Source: an uncultured Thermococci archaeon (GTDB lineage: Archaea; Methanobacteriota_B; Thermococci; Thermococcales; CAYNOZ01). Taken from it: a stretch of DNA of 40,883 nucleotides. The stretch spans positions 1-40,883 of the forward strand of contig CAYNOZ010000004.1 of NCBI GenBank assembly GCA_964398955.1, read 5' to 3'. Position 1 is the stretch's first letter, and each line of letters opens with the position of its first letter. The notes beneath the pieces are model-generated. The model did not search any database and was not told the origin of the DNA. It saw nothing but the letters and a program-made list of their open reading frames with translations. Of this stretch, positions 3,826 through 40,883 are shown one piece after another. A program made the translations under genes and the position numbers.

Positions 3826-5388
3826 TTACTCATTATTTGAAGTTAGGATAACGTTATTGCTTCCAAAGTACCCGATATTTTCTTTAGTAATCCCAATTAT
3901 TTTTCCTAAATTCTTTCCATCTTCAAAACCAGTCCCTTCTATTGGGAATCGTAGTATCGCATCATTAATTCCATCCTTATTTATATCTTCAAAGAAAATG
4001 TCAGAACTAATTGTAAGAACTCCTCCATCATCATTTAAAACTCCTGGAGTACCTAGTTTAACTCTGTCAATATCTATTTTACTTGAATTAAAATTCGAAG
4101 ATCCGTATATTCCTACTTCAACTTCGCCATCAAGATATAAATCCTCATCAAATGGGTTAATAATACAATCTATTTTTACAGAATCTTTAACATCTGCAGA
4201 ACTTAAATCTAAATTTCTTTCTTCACTACTTGATAGATTAGGTTTATTGCTACTTTCATCATCACCAGGTTCGTTACCATTACTATTGATAGGATTATTA
4301 CTGTCTTGAGAACTATTTATCCTTATAGTGCCATTAGAATTCTCTATATCATAGAAATAGTTTTCCTCAAATTCAACGGATTCATTATATGGATTGTTGA
4401 TTTGTCTAGCCATGAAAATTATCTTCAAATCTAGTATCGCATCTTGAAATTCATTCATCTCTGATATATTCAAATGATAATCTTGTGAAACATCCATCCA
4501 CTCTCCACTATCTAGTACCCCTAAATCCATCCAAGTACCTTTCACGTCAGAAACTGTTACGTTTTGATTGTATATGACATTCTCATCGTTATTAATTTCG
4601 GTTATTAAGCTGTAATCAATATTATTTCCTAATTCATCTCCTTGAATTATCTCTCCACTAGTTACATAGAAAGTATGATTATAAGTCCCATTCCCATTAT
4701 CTGTTACATTATCAAATCTAACTGTAAAACCTATCGAATCAGTTAACTCAGTACCAATACTATTAAACGTTGAATTAGCTATTTTTGTAGCTGCCTTTGT
4801 AAAAACAGTCACATTCTCACATTTATCATCTAAAATTATAGTAAAGGAATCTTTTTCTACAAAACCATCTTCTCCTAACCCATCTCCATTTGCTTCAAAT
4901 TTAACAGAGGATAAGTTTTTGAAATGCATATTGGTTGGAGGCAATTTACCGGCTGGAACTTCAACATTATAACTTGCTTGATATGATCCGTCCCCCCAAA
5001 TTTCTCTATCCACTTGATATAAATCACCGTCTTCAGGATTTATAACGGCTAAATCATTATTACAAGTAAAATCGAATACAATATAGCTTAATGCGTGAGG
5101 TACTTTCTGTATTATGGACCCATTAAGATTAATTTTCTTATATATTCTAGATGGATTCGTTCCTTCATTAAATATGCTAACATTAGCCCAACCCACCTCT
5201 TCTGATGAAATATCAATTTCAAAGTATTTATTCCAAGGATTCTGATCGTTAATACTTATATCTATTGTACCCGCCTCTACATTAGCACTAGAATACTCTG
5301 AATCATTATAAATTGCTGTTGTACCTAATCCGAAAACCATTGAAATTAATCCTATCACCATAATACTTATTAATAATTTTTTTCTCAT
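3826..5388 (-). CDS. SipW-dependent TasA/CalY-like protein with inserted domain and C-terminal DxNxDG-containing domain (paralogue C)
   Basis: SipW-class signal LGTTA/IYNDSE..AGTIDISI. The TasA-like core is split by a ~150-aa insert, followed by an Asn/Ser-rich linker and a C-terminal EDINKDGINDAILRF motif. Confidence 0.75.
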   Translation of the reverse strand: MRKKLLISIMVIGLISMVFGLGTTAIYNDSEYSSANVEAGTIDISINDQNPWNKYFEIDISSEEVGWANVSIFNEGTNPSRIYKKINLNGSIIQKVPHALSYIVFDFTCNNDLAVINPEDGDLYQVDREIWGDGSYQASYNVEVPAGKLPPTNMHFKNLSSVKFEANGDGLGEDGFVEKDSFTIILDDKCENVTVFTKAATKIANSTFNSIGTELTDSIGFTVRFDNVTDNGNGTYNHTFYVTSGEIIQGDELGNNIDYSLITEINNDENVIYNQNVTVSDVKGTWMDLGVLDSGEWMDVSQDYHLNISEMNEFQDAILDLKIIFMARQINNPYNESVEFEENYFYDIENSNGTIRINSSQDSNNPINSNGNEPGDDESSNKPNLSSSEERNLDLSSADVKDSVKIDCIINPFDEDLYLDGEVEVGIYGSSNFNSSKIDIDRVKLGTPGVLNDDGGVLTISSDIFFEDINKDGINDAILRFPIEGTGFEDGKNLGKIIGITKENIGYFGSNNVILTSNNE

Positions 5389-6061: not shown

Positions 6062-7501
6062 CTATTGTTGCTCTTCATCTGGTTCTATTACTGAGTCTGG
6101 ATCTGGGCATATTACTCCAACAGCCATGTCACCATATCCAACAGTATGTGGAGTCATTCCAAAGTATGGTTCATATGCAACTGCATCTCCGGTGTCTCTA
6201 TCGACTACATATATGTTACCTGAAGTTTCGAATCCGTTGGTGGATCCTACTAATGCTCCAGTACCTGCCTCTCTAATAGCTATTCCTGTGAAGTAGTCTG
6301 GTGCCGGTGATGGTTCGGTTGCTAAAGTTGCAGTCATTGTATCTAAGTCTATGTTGTAGAAAGCGTCATCAGCGTTTGTGTACAGTATTAGGTCTCCGTA
6401 GGCGTCAAATATTAAGTCAGCTCCTTGAACATCAAGAGTTCCACCTTCAACTATACTTACAGTTCCTAAAACGCTTCCAGATGGAGAATTTGGATCAATT
6501 GTTACTATTTCATCGGTATCGTCACTTGCTCCGTATATAAGACCGTCTTCTGGGTTTACTGCTCCTAGAACTATTTGTTTTTCTGCTACAGGAGTTCCTG
6601 AGTAATCTACTCCGTTGTCAAATGTTTCTGTTACTAGATCGTAGGTTCCTAATTGGTCCGTGTTTTTGTCCCATAGGTATAGTTCTTTTCCATCGTTTGA
6701 TGATGATAGTGAGTCTACGTTATCCCAAGCTCCTGAATCTACTTCAAACATTTTGTTTAAGTATGCTCTTTGTTCTGAGTCGTCGAGAACTACTTCAAAT
6801 ATTGTGGTTCCATCTTCTGCTCCTTCTCCACCTGGTCCGCTGTCACTTAGGTATATTGTTTCTACTCCGCTGCAGTCTCCACATTCTTCTGGGTCGTTGA
6901 CTTGTTGTGCGTAGAAGTGCATGTCAAATGTCATGTTGTCTCCTTGCGCCCAGTTAGTTGTTTCATTAAACATATGGTATCTCTGAGTTACTACAGCATA
7001 TCCGCCATCCCCTGGTATTACTCCTAATTTGTACTCTTCTTCGTCAACACCAAGTAGTAAATGTCCCATAAGAATATCTTTTTGTTCTACTAATGTTTCA
7101 TTTGCGTCATATATTTCAACGTGATTCCAGTATTCAATTGCTGCACTAATTTTGTTTATTTCATTTTCTGGATCTTCTGCTAGTTCTGATTCTGGGTGGA
7201 GTCCTCCTCCGTACCCTGTGATGTTAATCATTTTACATACAATAGCATCGTTTGTTCCAACGTTCTTGATTGTTACATTTGTCCATTGTTGATACATTTC
7301 AGATGGTTTCATATCCTCTAATGTGAATGAACTCATCCAAGGATTTTCATTATCGATTGCTATGTCTATTGTTCCTGCTTGTAGTGTGTTGTCTTCTGCT
7401 GACTCTACATCACTGAAAAAAGCTAATGTTCCGTACCCTGCCATTGCTGAAATCAGTCCTATTATCATTAGACTTGCTAAGAATCCTTTGTTATAATTCA
7501 T
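6062..7501 (-). CDS. SipW-dependent TasA/CalY-like protein with C-terminal beta-propeller-like domain (paralogue B, putative adhesin)
   Basis: YGTLA/FFSDVESAEDNTLQAGTIDI signal and N-terminal strand; TasA-like core; CGDC linker; repeated blade-like segments (SSNDGKELYLWD, VNPEDGLIYG, FDAYGDLIL). ATG 7501 follows a GAGGTGA SD. Confidence 0.75.
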   Translation of the reverse strand: MNYNKGFLASLMIIGLISAMAGYGTLAFFSDVESAEDNTLQAGTIDIAIDNENPWMSSFTLEDMKPSEMYQQWTNVTIKNVGTNDAIVCKMINITGYGGGLHPESELAEDPENEINKISAAIEYWNHVEIYDANETLVEQKDILMGHLLLGVDEEEYKLGVIPGDGGYAVVTQRYHMFNETTNWAQGDNMTFDMHFYAQQVNDPEECGDCSGVETIYLSDSGPGGEGAEDGTTIFEVVLDDSEQRAYLNKMFEVDSGAWDNVDSLSSSNDGKELYLWDKNTDQLGTYDLVTETFDNGVDYSGTPVAEKQIVLGAVNPEDGLIYGASDDTDEIVTIDPNSPSGSVLGTVSIVEGGTLDVQGADLIFDAYGDLILYTNADDAFYNIDLDTMTATLATEPSPAPDYFTGIAIREAGTGALVGSTNGFETSGNIYVVDRDTGDAVAYEPYFGMTPHTVGYGDMAVGVICPDPDSVIEPDEEQQ

Positions 7502-7640: not shown

Positions 7641-8354
7641 CTAATTTTGTACTTCTTGTTCTAAGACAGGTTCAAATTCGGTTATGGTTGAGTCATCGTT
7701 TAGTTGTAGTGCCATAAACATTACATCAAAGCTGAATTCGTCTCCTTGGTATTCGTTTCCTGCTTCGGCGATTATGTGGTAGTCTTGGTTAATGACCATG
7801 ACTGCTCCTGGTGCTAGTTCTCCAAAGAACATCCAAGTATTTGCGATGTCACTAACTAAGGTTCCATCTTCTTGTTCATGTACTATCCAACTGTCAGAAA
7901 CATTGCCTGCTTCGAATTCTGATTCGTTTGCGTATATTTTTACTTCTAAGCTGTAGTCAGTTACGTTATGTATATCGTCTATTCTTCCTTCCATTTCTGC
8001 TTCCCATTCTGGTTCTGATGAATACATTTCTTCAGTCTCTGGGTCCGTGAATCTTTCTAGTCCTGGTCCCCAGTCTACAACGTCTACCATTTTGAATATT
8101 TTTGCTGGGTTTGTTCCAACGTTTCTGATTGTTACGTTAATGTATTCTGTTCTTTCACATGGTTTCATGTCTAAGAATTCGTAGGTTGCGTTCCATGGGT
8201 TTTCCCCGTCTACGGATATGTCTATTGTTCCTGCTTGAAGTGTGTTGTCTTCTGCTGATTCTATGTCACTGAAGTATGCGTAGGTTCCTCCTCCTACTAC
8301 TAGTCCTATTAATCCGATTATTAATAGGCTTGATAAAATTTGCTTGGTTATCAT
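7641..8354 (-). CDS. SipW-dependent TasA/CalY (camelysin-like) family protein, putative major fibre subunit (paralogue A)
   Basis: Canonical SipW-cognate signal GGGTYA/YFSD followed by NTLQAGTIDISV and N.GTNP; GGAGGT SD; several N-x-T/S sequons. Confidence 0.82.
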   Translation of the reverse strand: MITKQILSSLLIIGLIGLVVGGGTYAYFSDIESAEDNTLQAGTIDISVDGENPWNATYEFLDMKPCERTEYINVTIRNVGTNPAKIFKMVDVVDWGPGLERFTDPETEEMYSSEPEWEAEMEGRIDDIHNVTDYSLEVKIYANESEFEAGNVSDSWIVHEQEDGTLVSDIANTWMFFGELAPGAVMVINQDYHIIAEAGNEYQGDEFSFDVMFMALQLNDDSTITEFEPVLEQEVQN

Positions 8355-15003: not shown

Positions 15004-16140
15004 CTATTCAGAGATTCCTATTTCTCTAAATCCGCCAAAATCTTTTCTAAACTCACTATAAACAGATTCCCCCACCAATTCTCTGTAAATCTCATCTGAC
15101 TTTACCACAGGTTCTACATCACTAAACCTTTCCGGGTATAGAACATTACCAATAAAATATGAGTTAGCTAATACATTAGCAAAGTTGTGACTATAGTAGC
15201 TCTGTGGTAAGATCCCGTAAATATTTCCCTCCTCAACTGCATCCAAACCCTTAAACTTCGGATCTTTTAAATCCTTCATAACTAGAGAATAACTACCCTC
15301 ATCAACAAAAATGAAATCAGGGTCCCATTCAATAATTTTCTCTTTACTCACCATTACATGCTCCATTCCTAAGCCACTTGCAGGATTTCTAGCATTCAAA
15401 AATTGGAAAGGACCAAATTTAGGCTCAGTTCCTGAAATTCCATGAGACCCTTTATAATTTACACCGCCAACATAAGCAGTAGGTCTTTCACTAGATTTTA
15501 GGTTCTGAGTTCGATTTTCCAAATCACTTATAGTATCCTTAATAAAATTTATTACTTCGTCAGATCTTTTTTCCTTGCCTAGTATCTCTCCTAATAACTG
15601 CAAACCATCGTAGACTTCATCCCTGTGCGCTCCTAAATCTCCATACCTTAAAGCTATCACTGGGACCCCGGTCTTTTCCTGTAAATCGTTAGCTTCCCCA
15701 GCAGTACAATCACTCCAAATGATTACATCCGGGTTCTGAGATGCAATTAATTCTGGGTCACCACCATGCATAGGTCCAATAGAAGGTAGATTCGATAGAT
15801 CTGGGTGAGCATAAATATAAGGCCTTCCCTTTAAATGTTTTTCATCCTTCTCAATTTCCTCTACTCCAACCACTCTATCAGTACTATTAATATAATCAAT
15901 TAATCTTAGAGTTCCAGCCCCTAATGCCACAATCTTTTCGGGCCTCTTTTGAACTTCTACTTCCCTACCTACCATGTCCTCAACAACTAAAGAACCCTTA
16001 CTTTCAACCTGATTAACACAACCAGAACCTAATAAAGAAACAAACAACACAAAAATTACTGAAACAATTATTAATGAATCTAATGAACCTTCAAATCCTT
16101 TAAACCGATTCAACTCTTTTTCACCGTTCTGCTCATCCAT
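15004..16140 (-). CDS. Metal-chelate ABC transporter substrate-binding lipoprotein
   Basis: Lipobox-like LGSGC; EDMVGREV, EKIVA, VVGVE, E.I....PD and WDPDFIF (periplasmic binding protein class III). Confidence 0.88.
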   Translation of the reverse strand: MDEQNGEKELNRFKGFEGSLDSLIIVSVIFVLFVSLLGSGCVNQVESKGSLVVEDMVGREVEVQKRPEKIVALGAGTLRLIDYINSTDRVVGVEEIEKDEKHLKGRPYIYAHPDLSNLPSIGPMHGGDPELIASQNPDVIIWSDCTAGEANDLQEKTGVPVIALRYGDLGAHRDEVYDGLQLLGEILGKEKRSDEVINFIKDTISDLENRTQNLKSSERPTAYVGGVNYKGSHGISGTEPKFGPFQFLNARNPASGLGMEHVMVSKEKIIEWDPDFIFVDEGSYSLVMKDLKDPKFKGLDAVEEGNIYGILPQSYYSHNFANVLANSYFIGNVLYPERFSDVEPVVKSDEIYRELVGESVYSEFRKDFGGFREIGISE

Positions 16141-16159
16141 GAAAAACACCCTAAATATA

Positions 16160-16186
16160 GTAACACGAAATCTGTATTCTTGCTAC
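16160..16186. promoter_or_regulatory. Candidate NikR-like operator just downstream of the ABC operon TATA box
   Basis: GTAACAC-N13-TTGCTAC imperfect inverted repeat (27 bp), abutting minus-strand TTTAATAA at 16187-16194. Confidence 0.4.
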
Positions 16187-16296
16187 TTATTAAATTTTAT
16201 GGAAAAATAACACGAACAAAAATAAACATAAACAAACAAAAAATACCAACAAAAACTTAATTCATAAAAAAGTAAAAACTCAAAGGAGGATACAAA

Positions 16297-16569
16297 ATGA
16301 ACCAAAAAGAAATAACCACCAAATTAAAAAAATCCCTAAAAAACAGACCATGGGAATACGAAATACGTAAAACCAGCAAAACCATAAACTTAACATCCAA
16401 CTCAAAAAACGATCTAGAAGCATCAAACCACATATACCTAAAAATAAGCCACATCAAAAGCATAAAAGACAAAGGAGGAAAAAACATAGACCCCTTATTC
16501 ATTAAAACATCCCACGGAGAATTTCAAATCTACAAAAACGGAATCAAGTACAAACCACCAAAAAAATAA
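16297..16569 (+). CDS. Hypothetical basic protein
   Basis: 90-aa ORF with GGAGG SD 7 nt upstream; no recognised motif. Confidence 0.55.
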   Translation: MNQKEITTKLKKSLKNRPWEYEIRKTSKTINLTSNSKNDLEASNHIYLKISHIKSIKDKGGKNIDPLFIKTSHGEFQIYKNGIKYKPPKK

Positions 16570-16781
16570 AACACCCCCCATACCTCACAACCAGAAACAG
16601 TACCCTAAATATCCAATCTTAACCAACTGATCCCAAATTTTATTGACAATGATATCATAAGTTTTTGTCAGTATTTCTATTTATTCTTCTTTAAATTCTT
16701 TTAATGGATAAATAATCCAGAAATTTAACTTTATAAACCATAAAATATAAATTAACTACCGAACAACATAAAAAAAGAGGT

Positions 16782-16985
16782 ATGACTAAAATGGTATGGG
16801 GATTATCCAAACTCGAAGATAAAGAAATTGAAAAAATCCAACAATTAGAAAAAAAACTAGAAATAGAGCTACTAGCCTTCTCAGACTACGACCTCAAAAT
16901 CGCAGATCTAAATAAACAAGAAATAAACAAAATAAAAAAACTAGAAAAAGAACTCAACGTATCACTATTAGCAATAAACGAATAA
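16782..16985 (+). CDS. Small hypothetical protein made of two tandem ~30-aa repeats
   Basis: LSKLEDKEIEKIQQLEKKLEIELLAF versus IADLNKQEINKIKKLEKELNVSLLAI; GAGGT SD. Confidence 0.7.
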   Translation: MTKMVWGLSKLEDKEIEKIQQLEKKLEIELLAFSDYDLKIADLNKQEINKIKKLEKELNVSLLAINE

Positions 16986-17021
16986 ATAAAAACTCCATTT
17001 CTAATCTTCAAATTAAACAGA

Positions 17022-17428
17022 TTTAATGACCTCTCCTTAAAGGAAGGAGATTCCATGCGGGCCTTATCCAAAGGGAGTTTGCCAAGCATCAGGCTTCTCT
17101 CATCGACCTGATCAACATAGAACTTAACTCCAGGAGAAGACCGGATTAGACAAGAAGACCTATACTAACCAATTGGTTCCCTTATTCTTATTTTCCCTGG
17201 CAGCTCCACATCCCCACTACACTCTACTGAATTCGAGCTTACCTAACCTTGAATGTCGAGTCTGAGGCTTTATCCAATGCCTCAAAAGGCATGGGATCGC
17301 TTTTTGATCAACACCAGACTCCCAACCAACTACCAGTTAATTTCACTAAGTATTGGGGCTATTTAGTGTTACGGTTTGGTGTATCCTATCTCTAAAGGAC
17401 GAGGTCTTAACCAACCACGAAAAGATAA
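17022..17428 (-). mobile_element. ORF-less structured element with IS200/IS605-type ends (non-autonomous, PATE-like or ncRNA-carrying), copy A
   Basis: The reverse complement of 17161-17428 aligns blockwise with 40596-40883. Terminal hairpins are CCTCGTCCTTTAGAGATAGG (left) and GAATCTCCTTCCTTTAAGGAGA (right), with several internal stems. Confidence 0.7.
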
Positions 17429-17529
17429 AGATCATCAAAATTAAAATTTTCCTAACTAAACTGAGCAACTTCTAATTTTGGCATCCCTAATTCTTTAAAC
17501 TATAACCACGATATAACAAGGGTAAAAAG

Positions 17530-18414
17530 ATGTTACAGGATCTTGAAAAAACAGAAAAAGTAAAAATTTACACCTTATTAGAGGATTATGCCGGTTATAG
17601 TACTTTATTCAAATCTCAGCACGGAATTTCTTTTTTAATTGAATCAAAAGTGGATAATAAAACTACAAGGGTACTTTTTGATACAGGCACTTCTGCAGAG
17701 CCAGTTCTATATAATTTGGATCTTTTAAATATAGATCCTAGCTCAATTGATATGATAGTACTTTCTCATAATCATTATGATCATACTGGAGGTTTAAAGA
17801 AATTCGTTGAAAAAATTGATGGTCAAGTTCCAATATTCGCCCATCCTAATATTTTCAGGAAAAGTTTTGCTGTTGACCCAATGTTTAGATATGCCGGAAT
17901 TCCTCCTCTTAGAGGTGGTATGAAAGAAGATATTGAAGAGATTGGTGGGATTTGGATGCTTTCTGAGGATCCGATTAAACTAATGCCTGGTATCTTCACT
18001 CTCGGGGAGATTAATTCTCAAGTTGAGTTTGAAAAGGAAGCTAATATTGATCTCTACAAAATTGAAGATGGTAAAGTTTCAAAGGACGAGATAGAAGATG
18101 AAATTGGATTAGGAATCTTAACAGATGACGGTTTAAGTATCGTTGGAGGATGTTCTCATCCTGGAATTGTTAGCATGATAGAACAAGGCCAAAATTTGAT
18201 TAACACTCAAGAAATAAATAAAATAATCGGAGGTTTTCACTTAAAAGATGCTGAAGACGTTAGAATAGAGCAAACAGTTAAGAATTTAAAAGATAAAAAA
18301 GCAAACAAGATTATTACTGGACACTGCACAGGTTTAAAAGCTGAATCGAAATTCTTAGAAATCTTCAATGATAAATTTGAGAAATTAAACTCAGGCAAAA
18401 TCATTGAAATTTAA
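17530..18414 (+). CDS. MBL-fold metallo-hydrolase (MJ0301/dihydropteroate-synthase-like family)
   Basis: HGISFLIE, LFDTG, SHNHYDHTGG, GCSHPG, GGFHL and GHCTG motifs. Confidence 0.88.
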   Translation: MLQDLEKTEKVKIYTLLEDYAGYSTLFKSQHGISFLIESKVDNKTTRVLFDTGTSAEPVLYNLDLLNIDPSSIDMIVLSHNHYDHTGGLKKFVEKIDGQVPIFAHPNIFRKSFAVDPMFRYAGIPPLRGGMKEDIEEIGGIWMLSEDPIKLMPGIFTLGEINSQVEFEKEANIDLYKIEDGKVSKDEIEDEIGLGILTDDGLSIVGGCSHPGIVSMIEQGQNLINTQEINKIIGGFHLKDAEDVRIEQTVKNLKDKKANKIITGHCTGLKAESKFLEIFNDKFEKLNSGKIIEI

Positions 18415-18432
18415 AAACCTAAGTTGCAAAGA

Positions 18433-18915
18433 TCATTTAATTTGAGCTAAAATGCTCCAATATCTATCCTTTCTTTTTCCTTGAATTATTTTATATCCTT
18501 GTTCTTTTAGTTTTAACATAACTTCATCTAAGTTAAAGTATTCTTCATTGAGTCCGTTGTTCACTCCTTCTTTCCAATCTACTATAATTATATGGCCTTT
18601 ATTGTTAAGAACTTTTTTTGAATTTTTTAAGAATAAATTAGGTTTATTTAAATGGTGTAATGTTTTTATAGTGTAAATAATATCGAAAATTTGATCTAAC
18701 TGGTTTATTTCCTCTCCTTTCAATTCGTAACATTCTTGTCTTTCTTCTTTCATATTCAAAATTGGATATGGATCAATTCCAACTATTTTAGCTCCGTAAT
18801 TGTGTTTTAAGCTTTCGATTAGTTCCCCATTACCGCATCCAACATCCAATACCTTATGATTTCTCTTGTAAATTTTTTCGAAAAGTTCAATAAAAGAATT
18901 GTCCATTTCATCCAT
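18433..18915 (-). CDS. Class I SAM-dependent methyltransferase
   Basis: VLDVGCGNG motif I, FDII, LHH and G.IIIVDW. Confidence 0.85.
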   Translation of the reverse strand: MDEMDNSFIELFEKIYKRNHKVLDVGCGNGELIESLKHNYGAKIVGIDPYPILNMKEERQECYELKGEEINQLDQIFDIIYTIKTLHHLNKPNLFLKNSKKVLNNKGHIIIVDWKEGVNNGLNEEYFNLDEVMLKLKEQGYKIIQGKRKDRYWSILAQIK

Positions 18916-19020: not shown

Positions 19021-20379
19021 TCATAAAGAACCATTTACGGACATTTCTATGATCTTTTTTATTTCTGATTTGAATTCTAGCGGTATGTCTTCTATTAGTG
19101 GGCTTACGAATCCTTTTACTATTAGTTGAGTTGCTTCTTCTTCGGTTAATCCTCTACTTTGTAGGTAAAATAGTTCTTTTTCTCTAATATTTCCTATTCC
19201 TGCTTCGTGGCTTAGATCTGTATTGCTTACTTCTGATGCTAGTCCTGGATAGGTTTCCATGCTTGCATTTGGGCTGGTTGTTAATGCATCGCATCCGATG
19301 TGTCCTTCTGTTTCTTCTTCAAGTGCGTTTATAACACCTTCCGATACAACAGATGCTTCGTCCATTATTACGGCTTTACTTTCGTTTATTCCGCTAGAAC
19401 CTTTTCCTTCAAGGTTGATTTCTCCACCTACGCTGACATGTGAATCTTCTTTTCCTAAAATTATTGTATTCATTTCTACTGTTCCCTCTTTATCTACCCA
19501 ATATTTAGGATTGGATATATTAGATTTTCCAGGTCCTAATCCAACAGTAGTGTTTTTAAATGATGCTTCCTTCCCAACTTTTGCTCTGGTCTTTGGTCTA
19601 GTATGTACGTATTGTGGCCAGTTCTGTAGTACAGTTAATTTAACTTCAGCATTATCTTTTATGAAGGCTTCAGTCATGTCTAGGTGTAGTGAGTGTTTCG
19701 CTAAAACTGGTGAAGTACAGCCTTCCATTAGATGGACTTTACTGTTTGGTTCTGCCATGATCATTATATGTGGGGCCTGTGCTAGAGAGCTTTCCTGGAT
19801 TAGGTAGAAAAGTTGAAGTGGAACGTCAACTTCTAGGCCTTCTTCTAAATGTAGGAATATTCCTCCATCCCATACTGCCGTATGGTACGCGGCTAATTTA
19901 TTTTCGGTTGGATCAAATAGTTCCATGAAGTTTTCTTTGACTTGTGGAAACTCTTTTACTGCTTCTTCCATTGGTGCAATGGTTAATCCTTTTTCTTCCC
20001 ATTTGTCCATGAAGTCGGATTGTACTACTCCTGTGTCGGTTTCTGATGTTAGTCCTGCTATAAATTTTTGTTCTTCTTCATTGATTCCTAGTTCATCTAG
20101 GAGTTTTTTCATATCTGATGGTAGATCCTCTAAGCTGTCTATTGATTCTACTGGAACTTCGTTTTGTCTTCCTGTGAAGTCGGTTAAGTTATTTAATATC
20201 GGGTCTTGATTTGGTGCTTTTTTAAATGCTTCCAGTCCTTCGTATCTCTTTTCAGTTACCCATGATGGTTCATCATTCTTTTTGGCTATTTCTTCGATTC
20301 TTTTTTCTATTATTGAAGTTGCTTCTTCTAAATTGATGTGATTTTTATTGGTTTCTTTGACCATGGTTCTCTCATTCAT
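19021..20379 (-). CDS. sufB: Fe-S cluster assembly scaffold SufB-like (archaeal SmsB)
   Basis: EGCT, T.LQNW, H..CDAL, HEA.IG and LFYLQSRGL..EEA..LIV.GF motifs; overlaps the sufC stop. Start at 20379 or 20364. Confidence 0.9.
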   Translation of the reverse strand: MNERTMVKETNKNHINLEEATSIIEKRIEEIAKKNDEPSWVTEKRYEGLEAFKKAPNQDPILNNLTDFTGRQNEVPVESIDSLEDLPSDMKKLLDELGINEEEQKFIAGLTSETDTGVVQSDFMDKWEEKGLTIAPMEEAVKEFPQVKENFMELFDPTENKLAAYHTAVWDGGIFLHLEEGLEVDVPLQLFYLIQESSLAQAPHIMIMAEPNSKVHLMEGCTSPVLAKHSLHLDMTEAFIKDNAEVKLTVLQNWPQYVHTRPKTRAKVGKEASFKNTTVGLGPGKSNISNPKYWVDKEGTVEMNTIILGKEDSHVSVGGEINLEGKGSSGINESKAVIMDEASVVSEGVINALEEETEGHIGCDALTTSPNASMETYPGLASEVSNTDLSHEAGIGNIREKELFYLQSRGLTEEEATQLIVKGFVSPLIEDIPLEFKSEIKKIIEMSVNGSL

Positions 20380-21118
20380 CACAACCACACTCTTCAAATA
20401 CTTTTTCAAATCCTTTATTCTCTATTTTTTTGATAAGATCGCTTTCTCCTTCCATTACAAACTGTCCATTTTTAATTATGTGAACCTTTAAGGATTCAGG
20501 ATCTAGGTGTTTGAAAATTTTGCCGTAATGTGTTATTAAAATAGTTGCAGTGCCATTATTATGGAATTCTTTGATTTTCTTTGAAATCAGGTTGAGGGAG
20601 TCCACATCAACACCGCTATCTGGTTCGTCTAGGATTAATAGATCAGGATTTAGAAGAGAGGCTTGTAGTAGTTCAGATCTTTTCTTCTCTCCTCCGGAGA
20701 ATCCCATGTTTAAATATCTTTGAATATCGGGTTTTTCGAAGGAAAATTCTTGAGATTCTTTTACTATTTTTTTGTGCGCTTCTAGTTGGTTAAGATCTTC
20801 TTTTTTTTGTAAAATTCTTTTAAGAAATTCGTTAATTGTTACTCCTTGTACTTCTTCGGAGTATTGGAATGCCATGAAGATGCCTTTTCTTGCTCTTTCA
20901 TCTACTGGAAGGTCTGCTATGTTTTGACCCTTATAGATTATTTCGCCATTTTCTAGGTTGTATTTTGGGTGTCCCATGATGGAATAACCTAGTGTTGATT
21001 TACCGCTACCGTTTGGCCCCATTATAACGTGTATTTTGTTGTTATCTACCTTAAGATTTACTTTGTTTAGAATTTTTTCTTGGTTGATGGTTGTTGTTAG
21101 GTTATTTAATTTTAACAT
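20372..21118 (-). CDS. sufC: Fe-S cluster assembly ATPase SufC (SmsC)
   Basis: MGPNGSGKSTL, GHPKY, GFSGGEKKRSE, LDEPDSGVDVD and ITHY; C-terminal CGC. Confidence 0.93.
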   Translation of the reverse strand: MLKLNNLTTTINQEKILNKVNLKVDNNKIHVIMGPNGSGKSTLGYSIMGHPKYNLENGEIIYKGQNIADLPVDERARKGIFMAFQYSEEVQGVTINEFLKRILQKKEDLNQLEAHKKIVKESQEFSFEKPDIQRYLNMGFSGGEKKRSELLQASLLNPDLLILDEPDSGVDVDSLNLISKKIKEFHNNGTATILITHYGKIFKHLDPESLKVHIIKNGQFVMEGESDLIKKIENKGFEKVFEECGCDE

Positions 21119-38490: not shown

Positions 38491-38563
38491 TGCGCCTGCC
38501 GGGATTCGAACCCGGGCAATAAGCTTGGGAAGCTTATGTCCTACCAAACTAGACCACAGACGC
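38491..38563 (-). tRNA. tRNA-Gly (CCC)
   Basis: GCGTCTG/CAGGCGC acceptor stem, TAAGC-TTCCCAA-GCTTA anticodon arm, CCGGG-TTCGAAT-CCCGG T arm; discriminator A; no encoded CCA; no intron. Confidence 0.96.
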
Positions 38564-39044: not shown

Positions 39045-40238
39045 ATGATAATCTCATGGCTAGGTTTTTTCATTGCAATTGCTATATTACTACTGGGATC
39101 GAAGAAGAATCTTGGTTTAGCTCTTATAACTGCCGGTATAGTGCTAGGTTTATTTACATTGAGCTTAGAAAGTACTCTAAATCAAGCTTTAATAACTCTT
39201 CAAGACCCTTCAGTTATCACATTAACTGTAGCACTTACTATGATACCTATAATTGGAGGAGTGCTTCAAGAGAGTGGTGAATTAGATCATATTGTTGAAA
39301 ATTTAAGAATTGGTAAAAAGCCTTTTTTGGGATTATCACCAGCTTTGTTAGGGTTATTACCTATTCCAGGAGGTGCACTATTTTCTGCCCCTCTAATAGA
39401 TAAGGCTGGAGAAGATCTGGCAGGACATATTAAAGCTGGAATTAATATTTGGTTTAGACATGTACTTTTCTTTATATATCCTTTAGCTCCAGCATTAATT
39501 GTACCAGCAAAAATTGCAAATTTATCTGTTTACACAATAATAAAATTTCAACTCCCATTTTTCATTATCACAATAGCTTTAGGATATATATTCTTATTAA
39601 GAAAGGCTGATGGAGAGATGGATTATTCTAGTAAATTTTCTTTAAAAAATCTTATGCCCCCTTTAGCAGTAGTATTATTAGCTCCAATATTAGACTTTAC
39701 TCTTCAAACCATCTTCAAATTTGAAGTAACTGAAATATCAACTTTAATAGCTATCTTCAGTAGTTTAACATTAGCCATTTACATAATTGATTCAAGAAAA
39801 AAAATTCTAAAACTATCAATAAAAGAAATGGAACCCTGGAACTTCACAATTCTTATGCTAGGAATATTCTTCTTCATAAACGTATTCGAATCTTCGGGAA
39901 TCGGTAACTTAATAGCTAATCTATCATTATCAAAACTTACCCTAAGCGTAGGAGTAGGATTTATATTAGGACTAGCAACAGGCAGAATCAACTTACCTGC
40001 ATCAATCATAATCCCTATATTCATAACCAGCTTCGCATACGAACAATTACCACCAGTTATCTTCTCCCTAATATATGTATCAGTGTTCATGGGATATGTA
40101 ATCACACCAGTACACCCTTGTGTAGGAATCTCACTAGAATACTTCAAAAGCGACATGACAAATTACCTTAAATTAATGACCGCCCCCATAATAGTCTCCT
40201 TACTAATAGCAGTTGCCATATACTTCATAAACTTCTAA
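39045..40238 (+). CDS. DUF401-family membrane protein
   Basis: PALLGLLP.PGGA.FSAP, N.WFRH....YPL.P and G....P.H.C......YF; many TM helices. Confidence 0.85.
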   Translation: MIISWLGFFIAIAILLLGSKKNLGLALITAGIVLGLFTLSLESTLNQALITLQDPSVITLTVALTMIPIIGGVLQESGELDHIVENLRIGKKPFLGLSPALLGLLPIPGGALFSAPLIDKAGEDLAGHIKAGINIWFRHVLFFIYPLAPALIVPAKIANLSVYTIIKFQLPFFIITIALGYIFLLRKADGEMDYSSKFSLKNLMPPLAVVLLAPILDFTLQTIFKFEVTEISTLIAIFSSLTLAIYIIDSRKKILKLSIKEMEPWNFTILMLGIFFFINVFESSGIGNLIANLSLSKLTLSVGVGFILGLATGRINLPASIIIPIFITSFAYEQLPPVIFSLIYVSVFMGYVITPVHPCVGISLEYFKSDMTNYLKLMTAPIIVSLLIAVAIYFINF

Positions 40239-40595: not shown

Positions 40596-40883
40596 TTATC
40601 TTTTCGTGGTTGGGTAAGACTCCTCTCTTTAGGAAGAGGATACACCCAACTGTAACTTTAAATAATCTTAATACTAAATAAAGATAACTGGCAGTTGGTT
40701 GGGAGTCTGCCTCAACAAAAAGCCATCCCATGCCTTTTGAGGCAATGAATGAAGCCTCAGACCAACACCCAAGGTTAGGTAAAATCGAATGCAGCAGGTA
40801 AGCTCAAAACCGTTTTCGGTGTAGAGTATAGTGGTAGTGTGGAGCTACCAGGGAGAATAAGGGAACCAATACGAGTTAATATA
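40596..40883 (+). mobile_element. ORF-less structured IS200/IS605-type element, copy B (truncated by window end)
   Basis: Shares blocks TTATCTTTTCGTGGTTGG, AGGATACACC, AGTTGGTTGGGAGTCTG, ATCCCATGCCTTTTGAGGCA, AAGCCTCAGAC, CAAGGTTAGGTAA, GTGGAGCT.CCAGGGA and AGAATAAGGGAACCAAT with the reverse complement of 17161-17428. Confidence 0.7.

Follow-up and report, generated by a model that had tools for sequence, protein, structure and literature searches.

Palindrome-associated transposable elements (PATEs), the closest described counterparts of the repeat family reported here, often encode omega RNAs that need TnpB in trans (Meers et al., PMC10055086, in the part of the paper available to us). The family, to which we gave the name F1, is represented by two copies, A and B, in a stretch of 40,883 nucleotides (nt) from an uncultured Thermococci archaeon (contig CAYNOZ010000004.1 of assembly GCA_964398955.1), hereafter the window, which is contig C4 of genome G000, a 1.48-Mb assembly of 114 contigs that is 91% complete. 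From sequence comparison we consider it probable, with moderate confidence, that F1 is a PATE-like, non-autonomous element of the IS200/IS605 type bearing a stand-alone, enlarged omega RNA of the TnpB type; TnpA would move the element, and TnpB would use the RNA, in trans. The kind of element is already known; what is new is the F1 family, its archaeal hosts, its size, two added modules and a re-tuned tail.

The PATEs of Geobacillus stearothermophilus resemble F1 in having no protein gene, in sharing their ends with TnpB insertion sequences (ISs) of the same genome, and in presumably being served by TnpA and TnpB in trans; unlike these elements, as described in the text of that report, F1 is archaeal, has a predicted RNA of ~320-390 nt with two modules beyond the parental omega RNA, and shows a tail and an anti-tail that have changed together (PMC10055086). 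In the omega RNA of ISDra2, bases -5 to -3 are paired to -103 to -105, and the parts that resemble CRISPR RNA (crRNA) and trans-activating CRISPR RNA (tracrRNA) are connected by a UUUA loop at -20 to -17 (Nakagawa et al., PMC10097598, in the available portion). Likewise, the predicted F1 RNA ends at the right end of the element, has a UUUA-type hairpin loop ~17-21 nt from that end, and pairs its guide-adjacent bases far upstream. The two RNAs nevertheless have no detectable sequence similarity, the upstream partner lies ~240 nt away in F1 versus ~100 nt in ISDra2 and is nested around several extra helices, and the F1 RNA, unlike the right-end-element RNA (reRNA) of ISDra2 as presented in that portion, does not overlap a tnpB reading frame (PMC10097598). 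HEARO, the omega RNA of IscB, is also a large structured RNA in an element of the IS200/IS605 superfamily, and differs from F1 in that its guide side is 5'. An IStron-derived PATE of Clostridioides difficile has in common with F1 the lack of open reading frames (ORFs), IS605-type ends and a structured RNA interior; in contrast to that element, as far as the available part of the preprint describes it, F1 gives no group I intron signature in Rfam and has a promoter-like box inside, not structure from the left end (bioRxiv 10.1101/2023.11.20.567912).

Within a few genomes, F1 and its relatives appear to form a natural series, leading from a TnpB gene that is overlapped by a compact omega RNA to an ORF-less derivative whose RNA is freed of coding constraint. 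This derivative has a promoter position of its own, has acquired two structured modules and has multiplied to dozens of copies. The guide RNAs of CRISPR-Cas12 descend from omega RNAs, and TnpB systems are being engineered as very small genome editors. In this context, such a series opens questions about what an omega RNA gains when it is uncoupled from its protein gene, about guide-RNA-only parasitism of TnpB and TnpA, and about the origin of tracr-like modularity.

Copies of F1 and their ends

The ORF-less repeat is present in the window in two copies, as repeat comparison confirmed. Copy A occupies positions 17021-17428, with its element sense on the minus strand, and copy B, in whose sense the family is read throughout, occupies 40596-40883 on the plus strand; the two are ~80% identical over their alignable parts. 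Copy A is intergenic, with an ORF at 16782-16985 on one side and another at 17530-18414 on the other, and copy B, which follows the ORF at 39045-40238, comprises TTATC (40596-40600), the left end, the TATA-like box and ~200 nt of the RNA before it stops at the contig end. A preliminary description of the window, made from the letters and a list of ORFs, had placed both copies correctly to within 1 nt, and the opposite orientation and intergenic placement that it reported also hold. Moreover, a 451-nt F1 query gave 21 matches in G000 at E<=0.001, a repetition far beyond chance, with long copies at nine places (C4 twice, C12, C17, C18, C23, C29, C68 and C103), and the search for further copies that the same description had proposed showed a multi-copy element in G000 and in its relatives. 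Many of the G000 copies lie at contig ends, as is to be expected of repeats, at which assemblies break. Further copies used below come from G001, which belongs to the same genus (g1), from Candidatus Methanohalarchaeum thermophilum HMET1 (G041) and from archaeon SCG-AAA382B04 (G042).

Every complete copy shows one and the same order: after TTATC and a 19-nt spacer come an imperfect hairpin, the interior, another hairpin that resembles the first and, last, a tail of 9 nt. On the minus strand of copy A, the left junction TTATC (17424..17428) is presumed to be both the TnpA target and the transposon-adjacent motif (TAM) of TnpB, and is counted as flank and not as element; TTATC forms the junction in 34 of the 37 copies with enough upstream sequence, TTATA in two, and in one the left end is absent. 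The spacer (17405..17423), read from the sequence, ends with TAAG-A at the foot of the hairpin, a guide-like tetranucleotide, and the left-end hairpin (17385..17404), imperfect and with three mismatches in copy A, still pairs with different sequence in other copies, e.g., that on C23. At the opposite side, the right-end hairpin (17030..17049) has, by the same reading, a UUUAA loop ~17-21 nt from the end, and is followed by the tail (17021..17029). A comparison of the tails of 39 copies gave TCACTTCAC in 34 of them and showed that the tail of copy A is degenerate, since its TCATTAAAT is unique to that copy; the TTAA after the right hairpin, which had been taken for an end feature, is therefore a peculiarity of copy A. 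Upstream of TTATC the flanks of the copies diverge, and beyond the tail the right flanks are unrelated between copies, with no repetition of TTATC. As judged from these junctions, F1 appears to insert 3' of a short conserved target, without target duplication.

The left and right hairpins resemble each other, lie on the same strand and form no terminal inverted repeats, and across copies their sequence varies while pairing is kept, as had been proposed from copies A and B. We take these ends to have the geometry of IS608, in which the target tetranucleotide is placed 19 nt to the 5' side of the left hairpin, and cleavage falls ~10 nt beyond the right hairpin on its 3' side. TnpB-encoding ISs of G000 on C34, C13, C7 and C67 have the same end design as F1, with different tails (TAGTTGAC, TAGTTTAC and CAGTTCAC), and HMET1 has a TnpB IS with an F1-like left end, so that the assignment of the ends to the IS200/IS605 type was borne out and loci with the same ends, which the preliminary description had suggested looking for, do exist in the same genomes.

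Besides the long copies, solo elements of ~50 nt, each made up of the left-end spacer, just one hairpin and the right-end tail, were observed in G000 (C9:~4954-5006, C17:~4931-4983, C54:~7761-7813, C15:~5198-5250, C24:~6068-6118, C5:~23951, C32:~10189, C34:~7046 and C58:~7142-7194), and the one on C58 bears the tail of the TnpB ISs instead. Their interior looks to have been lost through recombination between the two similar hairpins. Head-to-tail elements also occur in HMET1 (right flank of L087, G041:C1:1174129-1175143; G041:C1:414326-415832), with a new left end and its TTATC starting 5-9 nt past an F1 tail, and with the right end of F1 directly adjoining a TnpB IS.

Omega-RNA homology and pairing of the interior

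We inspected 44 TnpB 3' flanks from G000-related genomes, HMET1 and SCG-AAA382B04, a count that leaves out ~45 further, mostly fragmentary HMET1 matches, and found an F1-like core in seven of them, i.e., six HMET1 loci, one of which is intact, and G001:C77. The intact locus (G041:C2:143000-145500) encodes a TnpB of 445 amino acids with OrfB_IS605 (E 5e-26) and TNB (E 2e-10) domains, and the left end of this IS is near-identical to that of F1, TTATC included (blastn E 2e-13 to 4e-17). The 3' end of this TnpB family matches the middle of F1, with blastn E-values down to 1e-16 for HMET1 copies; in copy A, the core homologous to the 3' end of tnpB, the omega-RNA region, lies at 17162..17244 on the minus strand (E 2.4e-12 against G001:C77, L098; E 5e-8 to 3e-4 against the HMET1 TnpB loci). 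In the parent, this core and the final ~45 codons of tnpB overlap, which is where omega RNAs usually lie. At G001:C77, the end of the TnpB gene is broken by 10 consecutive N, ~100 nt ahead of the F1-like core, and the junction of gene and core is unreadable there.

The TnpB family of HMET1 and G001 thus has in common with F1 a near-identical left end, a homologous core of ~80-150 nt, the TTATC junction, the design of the right hairpin and a tail ending in TTCAC; unlike F1, it has the 445-aa TnpB, the tail TAGTTCAC, an anti-tail GUGGAC, and neither of the two modules named below, the 5' domain and Pa/Pb. The best explanation is that F1 descends from this TnpB-encoding IS family, having presumably lost tnpB, kept the left end and promoter position, the omega core and the right end, and gained two modules; its predicted RNA is roughly twice the size of the guide-RNA part of the parent. 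With respect to the preliminary description, its main inference withstood these comparisons, an omega-type guide-RNA scaffold acting in trans being the best reading of the interior, and only part of the statement that the interior is not a decayed tnpB stands, since the ~80 nt at 17162-17244 are homologous to the 3' end of that gene, while the rest has no detectable tnpB origin.

No conserved ORF was found in the 39 copies, where the longest stop-to-stop frames are of 40-127 codons. A decayed tnpB at the protein level was rejected, since the lowest E that tblastn returned for the three TnpB proteins of G000 in the elements was 1.4, and three open frames of the elements had no Pfam match at E<=10. 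With Rfam, the whole window matched at gathering scores only a tRNA, whose gene lies at 38491-38563 on the minus strand (67.3 bits); region 16900-17550 gave at E<=10 only a chance ROSE_2 match outside the element, and six further loci, the parent TnpB IS included, gave none at E<=1. A group I intron or IStron was accordingly rejected, no Rfam intron model having matched copy A at E<=10 or the six loci at E<=1. A HEARO/IscB system, in turn, does not fit, as Rfam gave no match and the guide side of F1 would be 3' and not 5'; a search of G000 for RRXRR (PF14239) also found nothing, and the same search matched 0 of 14 control genomes. Consequently, the HEARO-like scaffold suggested at first gave way to one of the TnpB type with its guide on the 3' side. 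The large non-coding RNA had also been called undescribed, which holds for the family, unmatched in Rfam, and not for the kind of element, since ORF-less IS200/IS605 elements with omega RNAs are already in print (PMC10055086, available part).

The end of F1 is tied to its core by pairing. Its six terminal bases, CUUCAC, are matched by a GUGGAG that is invariant and lies ~240 nt upstream (columns 263-269/508-513 of the alignment described below), in a helix that is 98.6% paired and in which all single changes are wobble-compatible; in copy A, where part of this pairing has been lost, the anti-tail, the partner of the last six bases in intact copies, is at 17204..17209 on the minus strand. TnpB-linked copies have GUGGAC with GUUCAC in six of seven cases, a compensatory C-G to G-C change between these copies and those of F1 and of F2, a second ORF-less family treated below, which has GUGAAG with CUUCAC in three of the four copies read. 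In TnpB ISs with the tail TAGTTGAC, GGTCAACT is found ~110 nt upstream. Furthermore, the right hairpin of F1 in G000 has its UUUA(A) loop at about -21 to -17.

For the whole interior, 39 RNA-sized cores were aligned with MAFFT (alignment A1, 513 columns), and RNAalifold predicted 55 pairs. Pairing is kept in 97.7% of the cells versus 91.3% in shuffles, none of 500 of which was as high, and versus 30-48% with the partners slid. Two-sided changes occur in 17 of the 55 predicted pairs, and the cells with such a change number 135, against 47.2 in shuffles (0/500 as high). Hence, across these copies pairing is kept while sequence changes, in agreement with the structural constraint on the interior that had been proposed from two copies. 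A column-pair covariation scan of our own picked up mostly subfamily markers and was left out of the evidence.

The best examples are found in several parts of the predicted scaffold, which in copy A would span ~320 nt (17021..17339, minus strand, from A1, RNAalifold and the pair counts) and end at the right end of the element. Before the right hairpin, the Pa/Pb module (17050..17123, minus strand, ~75 nt), which is common to F2, forms a long-range stem around a hairpin; helix Pa (columns 372-381/454-461) appears as CCAUG/CAUGG versus CCCUG/CAGGG, and helix Pb (columns 384-391/405-411) has two-sided changes in five of seven pairs, with up to four pair types. Helix Pc (columns 325-327/341-343) is also among the best supported, and the helix at columns 297-299/315-317 is AGC/GCU in 26 copies and AAC/GUU in 12. 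A hairpin at columns 164-169/175-180 shows two-sided change in four of six pairs, and copy A is without its 3' arm. This hairpin belongs to an extra 5' domain (17245..17339, minus strand), which by blastn has no counterpart in the TnpB-linked omega region; the domain is ~95 nt long in copy A and ~115 nt in those copies in which it was measured, and it may also contain a pseudoknot, S2/S3. Two stems proposed in the preliminary description fared less well. GTCTG/CAGAC pairs in most copies, but has zero two-sided changes, does not outperform shuffles and competes with an alternative partner, for which two variant copies speak; in GGTAAGCTC/GAGCTRCC, two positions fail in 30-31 of 39 copies, and the change of CUC to CCC is compensated by that of GAGU to GGGU and not in GGAGC.

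Could such covariation be nothing more than subfamily descent among functionless, decaying deletion derivatives of a TnpB IS? We regard this as unlikely. The copies do share descent, subfamily markers account for many of the single-column covariations, decay is plain to see in copy A and the only TnpA of G000 is broken. Helix Pb, however, has three to four standard pair types at several positions and almost no broken cells, which neutral decay does not produce; the boundaries are exact in 34/39 tails and 34/37 left junctions, and the more than 40 copies of HMET1, with up to 91% identity, point to a recent amplification of elements that were at least competent for transposition.

Strand, presumed promoter and mobility

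All eight copies that were folded in both senses are more stable in the left-to-right sense than as the complement, with -90.6 versus -73.0 kcal/mol for copy A and -123.2 versus -106.0 kcal/mol for the consensus, and G-U pairs are numerous among the predicted pairs. Runs of T act as archaeal termination signals, and runs of at least five T occur on the element strand in one of 39 copies versus 38 of 39 on the opposite strand. In addition, an A/T-rich box lies at a constant distance in the G000, G001, HMET1 and SCG-AAA382B04 copies; in copy A this TATA-like box, ACTAAATAG (17359..17367, minus strand), is a presumed archaeal promoter ~20-25 nt upstream of the point where conservation resumes, and in the parent IS the tnpB promoter region is in the same place. 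From the fold asymmetry, the G-U pairs, the T-run bias and the TATA-like box we infer an internal archaeal promoter and a left-to-right RNA of ~320-390 nt that would reach and pass through the right end. The stem that the preliminary description noted as CACTA/TAGTG in copy A and CTTTA/TAAAG in copy B recurs in other G000 copies as ATAGT/ACTAT and GAGT/ACTC, and was not seen in the HMET1 copies. This small stem lies over the TATA-like box (copy A, 17345-17369; copy B, 40656-40683), has other sequences in the copies on C23, C18 and C17, and may be a DNA signal, a promoter feature or chance.

A working cycle for F1 can be proposed on these grounds. A Y1 TnpA made elsewhere would recognise both subterminal hairpins on the top strand, which for copy A is the minus strand of the window, and would cut behind TTATC at the left end and behind ...TCAC at the right end, whereupon the single strand would reinsert after another TTATC. 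The TATA-like box would drive the ~320-390-nt RNA through the right end into the flank, and, by analogy with the layout of TnpB omega RNAs, positions 17001..17020 (minus strand) would be the source of the guide in copy A. A TnpB of the parent family could bind this RNA in trans, with the flank as guide and TTATC as TAM, and the emptied donor site would then be cut by TnpB and the element restored by recombination (homing).

The strand asymmetry bears equally on a different explanation, in which the pairing acts in DNA, the folded, excised top strand aiding excision or integration by TnpA or shielding a single-stranded circle, with no functional RNA. IS200/IS605 elements move as top-strand single-stranded DNA (PMC10055086, available part), the top strand of F1 has the sense of the predicted RNA, and the end hairpins certainly are DNA signals. 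This explanation seems to us very improbable, because the core is homologous to the RNA scaffold region of TnpB systems, the TATA-like box is kept at a fixed distance, and the avoidance of T runs on one strand suggests transcription. It is further disfavoured by the fact that we know of no requirement for interior DNA structure in IS608-type transposition.

Reads from a brine run, X1, which is labelled metatranscriptomic and was classed by the analysis tool as probably DNA, were examined for region 16000-18500. A 176-nt contig from a related copy covers 17094-17245 with six differences, a 7-nt deletion and adapter at its end, the flanking genes being uncovered. The same run yielded another contig, of 129 nt, on 16501-16579; it is bordered by adapter at either end and covers the 3' end of the small ORF at 16297-16569 at a depth of 106, the neighbouring genes being uncovered.

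Partner proteins, distribution and other repeat families

Candidate partners differ among the genomes with F1. In HMET1 there are 89 matches to the TNB domain and 24 to Y1, of which several are intact, and SCG-AAA382B04 has 13 TNB-domain and four Y1 matches (four intact); G001 has two partial Y1 matches and the cognate TnpB, at 74% identity. The three intact TnpBs of G000 are unrelated to the cognate family.

Several observations weigh against an omega RNA used by TnpB in trans. The structure was predicted from the same alignment on which it was tested and the copies share descent, so the shuffle and slide controls overstate the support; the asymmetry of the strands fits a single-stranded DNA as well as an RNA, as the two have the same sense; and neither the 5' domain nor the Pa/Pb module has a counterpart in any TnpB locus examined, where blastn with both returned only other F1 and F2 copies. 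The tail TCACTTCAC was found in none of the 44 inspected TnpB 3' flanks, and the intact TnpB copy of HMET1 has one mismatch in its anti-tail. In G000, the single Y1 gene carries two stops and no cognate TnpB was found, the best tblastn match having 27% identity, in an assembly that is 91% complete and broken at repeats into 114 contigs. Lastly, copy A has a left hairpin weakened by its three mismatches and a tail that has ceased to match the anti-tail. Copy A is probably a relic, and F1 in G000 looks largely fossil.

Some of these points would favour a structured RNA whose main role is not the guiding of TnpB, be it a TnpB decoy, an antisense or regulatory RNA that extends into the genes next to it, or one with catalytic or other activity in the extra modules, with the core as a remnant. 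About half of the RNA lies in the two modules absent from the TnpB-linked omega region, and these show compensatory pairing all the same; the F1 tail is missing from the 44 TnpB flanks; F1 persists in G000, where the cognate TnpB was not found; and HMET1 has more than 40 F1 copies versus six of the cognate TnpB, one of them intact. We nonetheless hold such a role to be doubtful, given that the omega core, the anti-tail with the tail and the right hairpin are the most conserved parts and covary with the tail, as expected if loading of TnpB matters, that no Rfam ribozyme or other family matched, and that every copy differs in its flanks, which leaves no common antisense target. It is an improbable idea that F1 is a hyper-parasitic guide-RNA gene that has shed both proteins, gained two RNA domains and re-tuned its tail and anti-tail so as to compete for the parental TnpB or to dispense with it. 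If this were true, the extra domains would do something new, for example recruit a different nuclease, bring about self-processing or make the RNA more stable, and both the excess over TnpB in HMET1 and the persistence in G000 would be explained.

With a DNA query, F1 was found in two of the 41 nearest genomes, G000 and G001, and in two of 133 genomes of the phylum of the window, both of genus g1, the other 131 being without a match. A degenerate pattern taken from the conserved 3' part of F1 also matched genome contigs of HMET1 and SCG-AAA382B04, and the DNA search then gave at least 52 matches in HMET1 (a lower bound, 40 of 304 candidates having been scored), 27 in SCG-AAA382B04 and nine in G001. 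More than 40 of those in HMET1 are near-full copies, all of ~330-440 nt, with 74-91% identity to the query. HMET1 and SCG-AAA382B04 are Methanonatronarchaeia-type genomes, and the housekeeping-type protein encoded at 19021-20409 of the window has 61% identity to genomes of its own order and 29% to HMET1; between G000 or G001 and these two genomes, this protein reaches just 24-29%. Since F1 is present in two of 133 genomes of the phylum, in one genus, and in two Methanonatronarchaeia-type genomes, its distribution suggests horizontal spread among distantly related brine archaea. The syntenic region of G001 (contig C19) is without F1 and is too diverged for an exact empty site to be defined. A pattern scan of metagenome contigs gave one match, inside a GC-rich coding region, which was dismissed as chance, and the literature search found no paper on the F1 family or on IS elements of Methanohalarchaeum.

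Other ORF-less families were observed in the same genomes. F2 has its own interior and has in common with F1 the Pa/Pb module, the anti-tail and the tail TCACTTCAC; it is present in G000 (C103:447-860, C77:1804-2159, C47:7291-7639, C97:1291-1621, C20:23561-23817 and fragments) and in HMET1 (L094). F3, of ~400 nt and with the tail GATGTCAC, has at least 10 copies in the 1.48 Mb of G000 (C64:1-415, C80:4490-4892, C53:2907-3310, C93:222-629, C33:15360-15756, C20:12293-12684 and others), and in its ends and in its omega-like part it corresponds to an IS of HMET1 with an intact tnpA and a tnpB (G041:C1:451014-454367). Finally, a dispersed GC-rich repeat, running from GGGGCTTCCAGAGCAAC... to ...GATCTCACT and seemingly unrelated to F1-F3, occurs in G000 on C93 (1100-1190), where it lies between a decayed tnpA and tnpB, and on C17 (~24357), C20 (~4409), C25 (~4894), C26 (~61) and C75 (~306).

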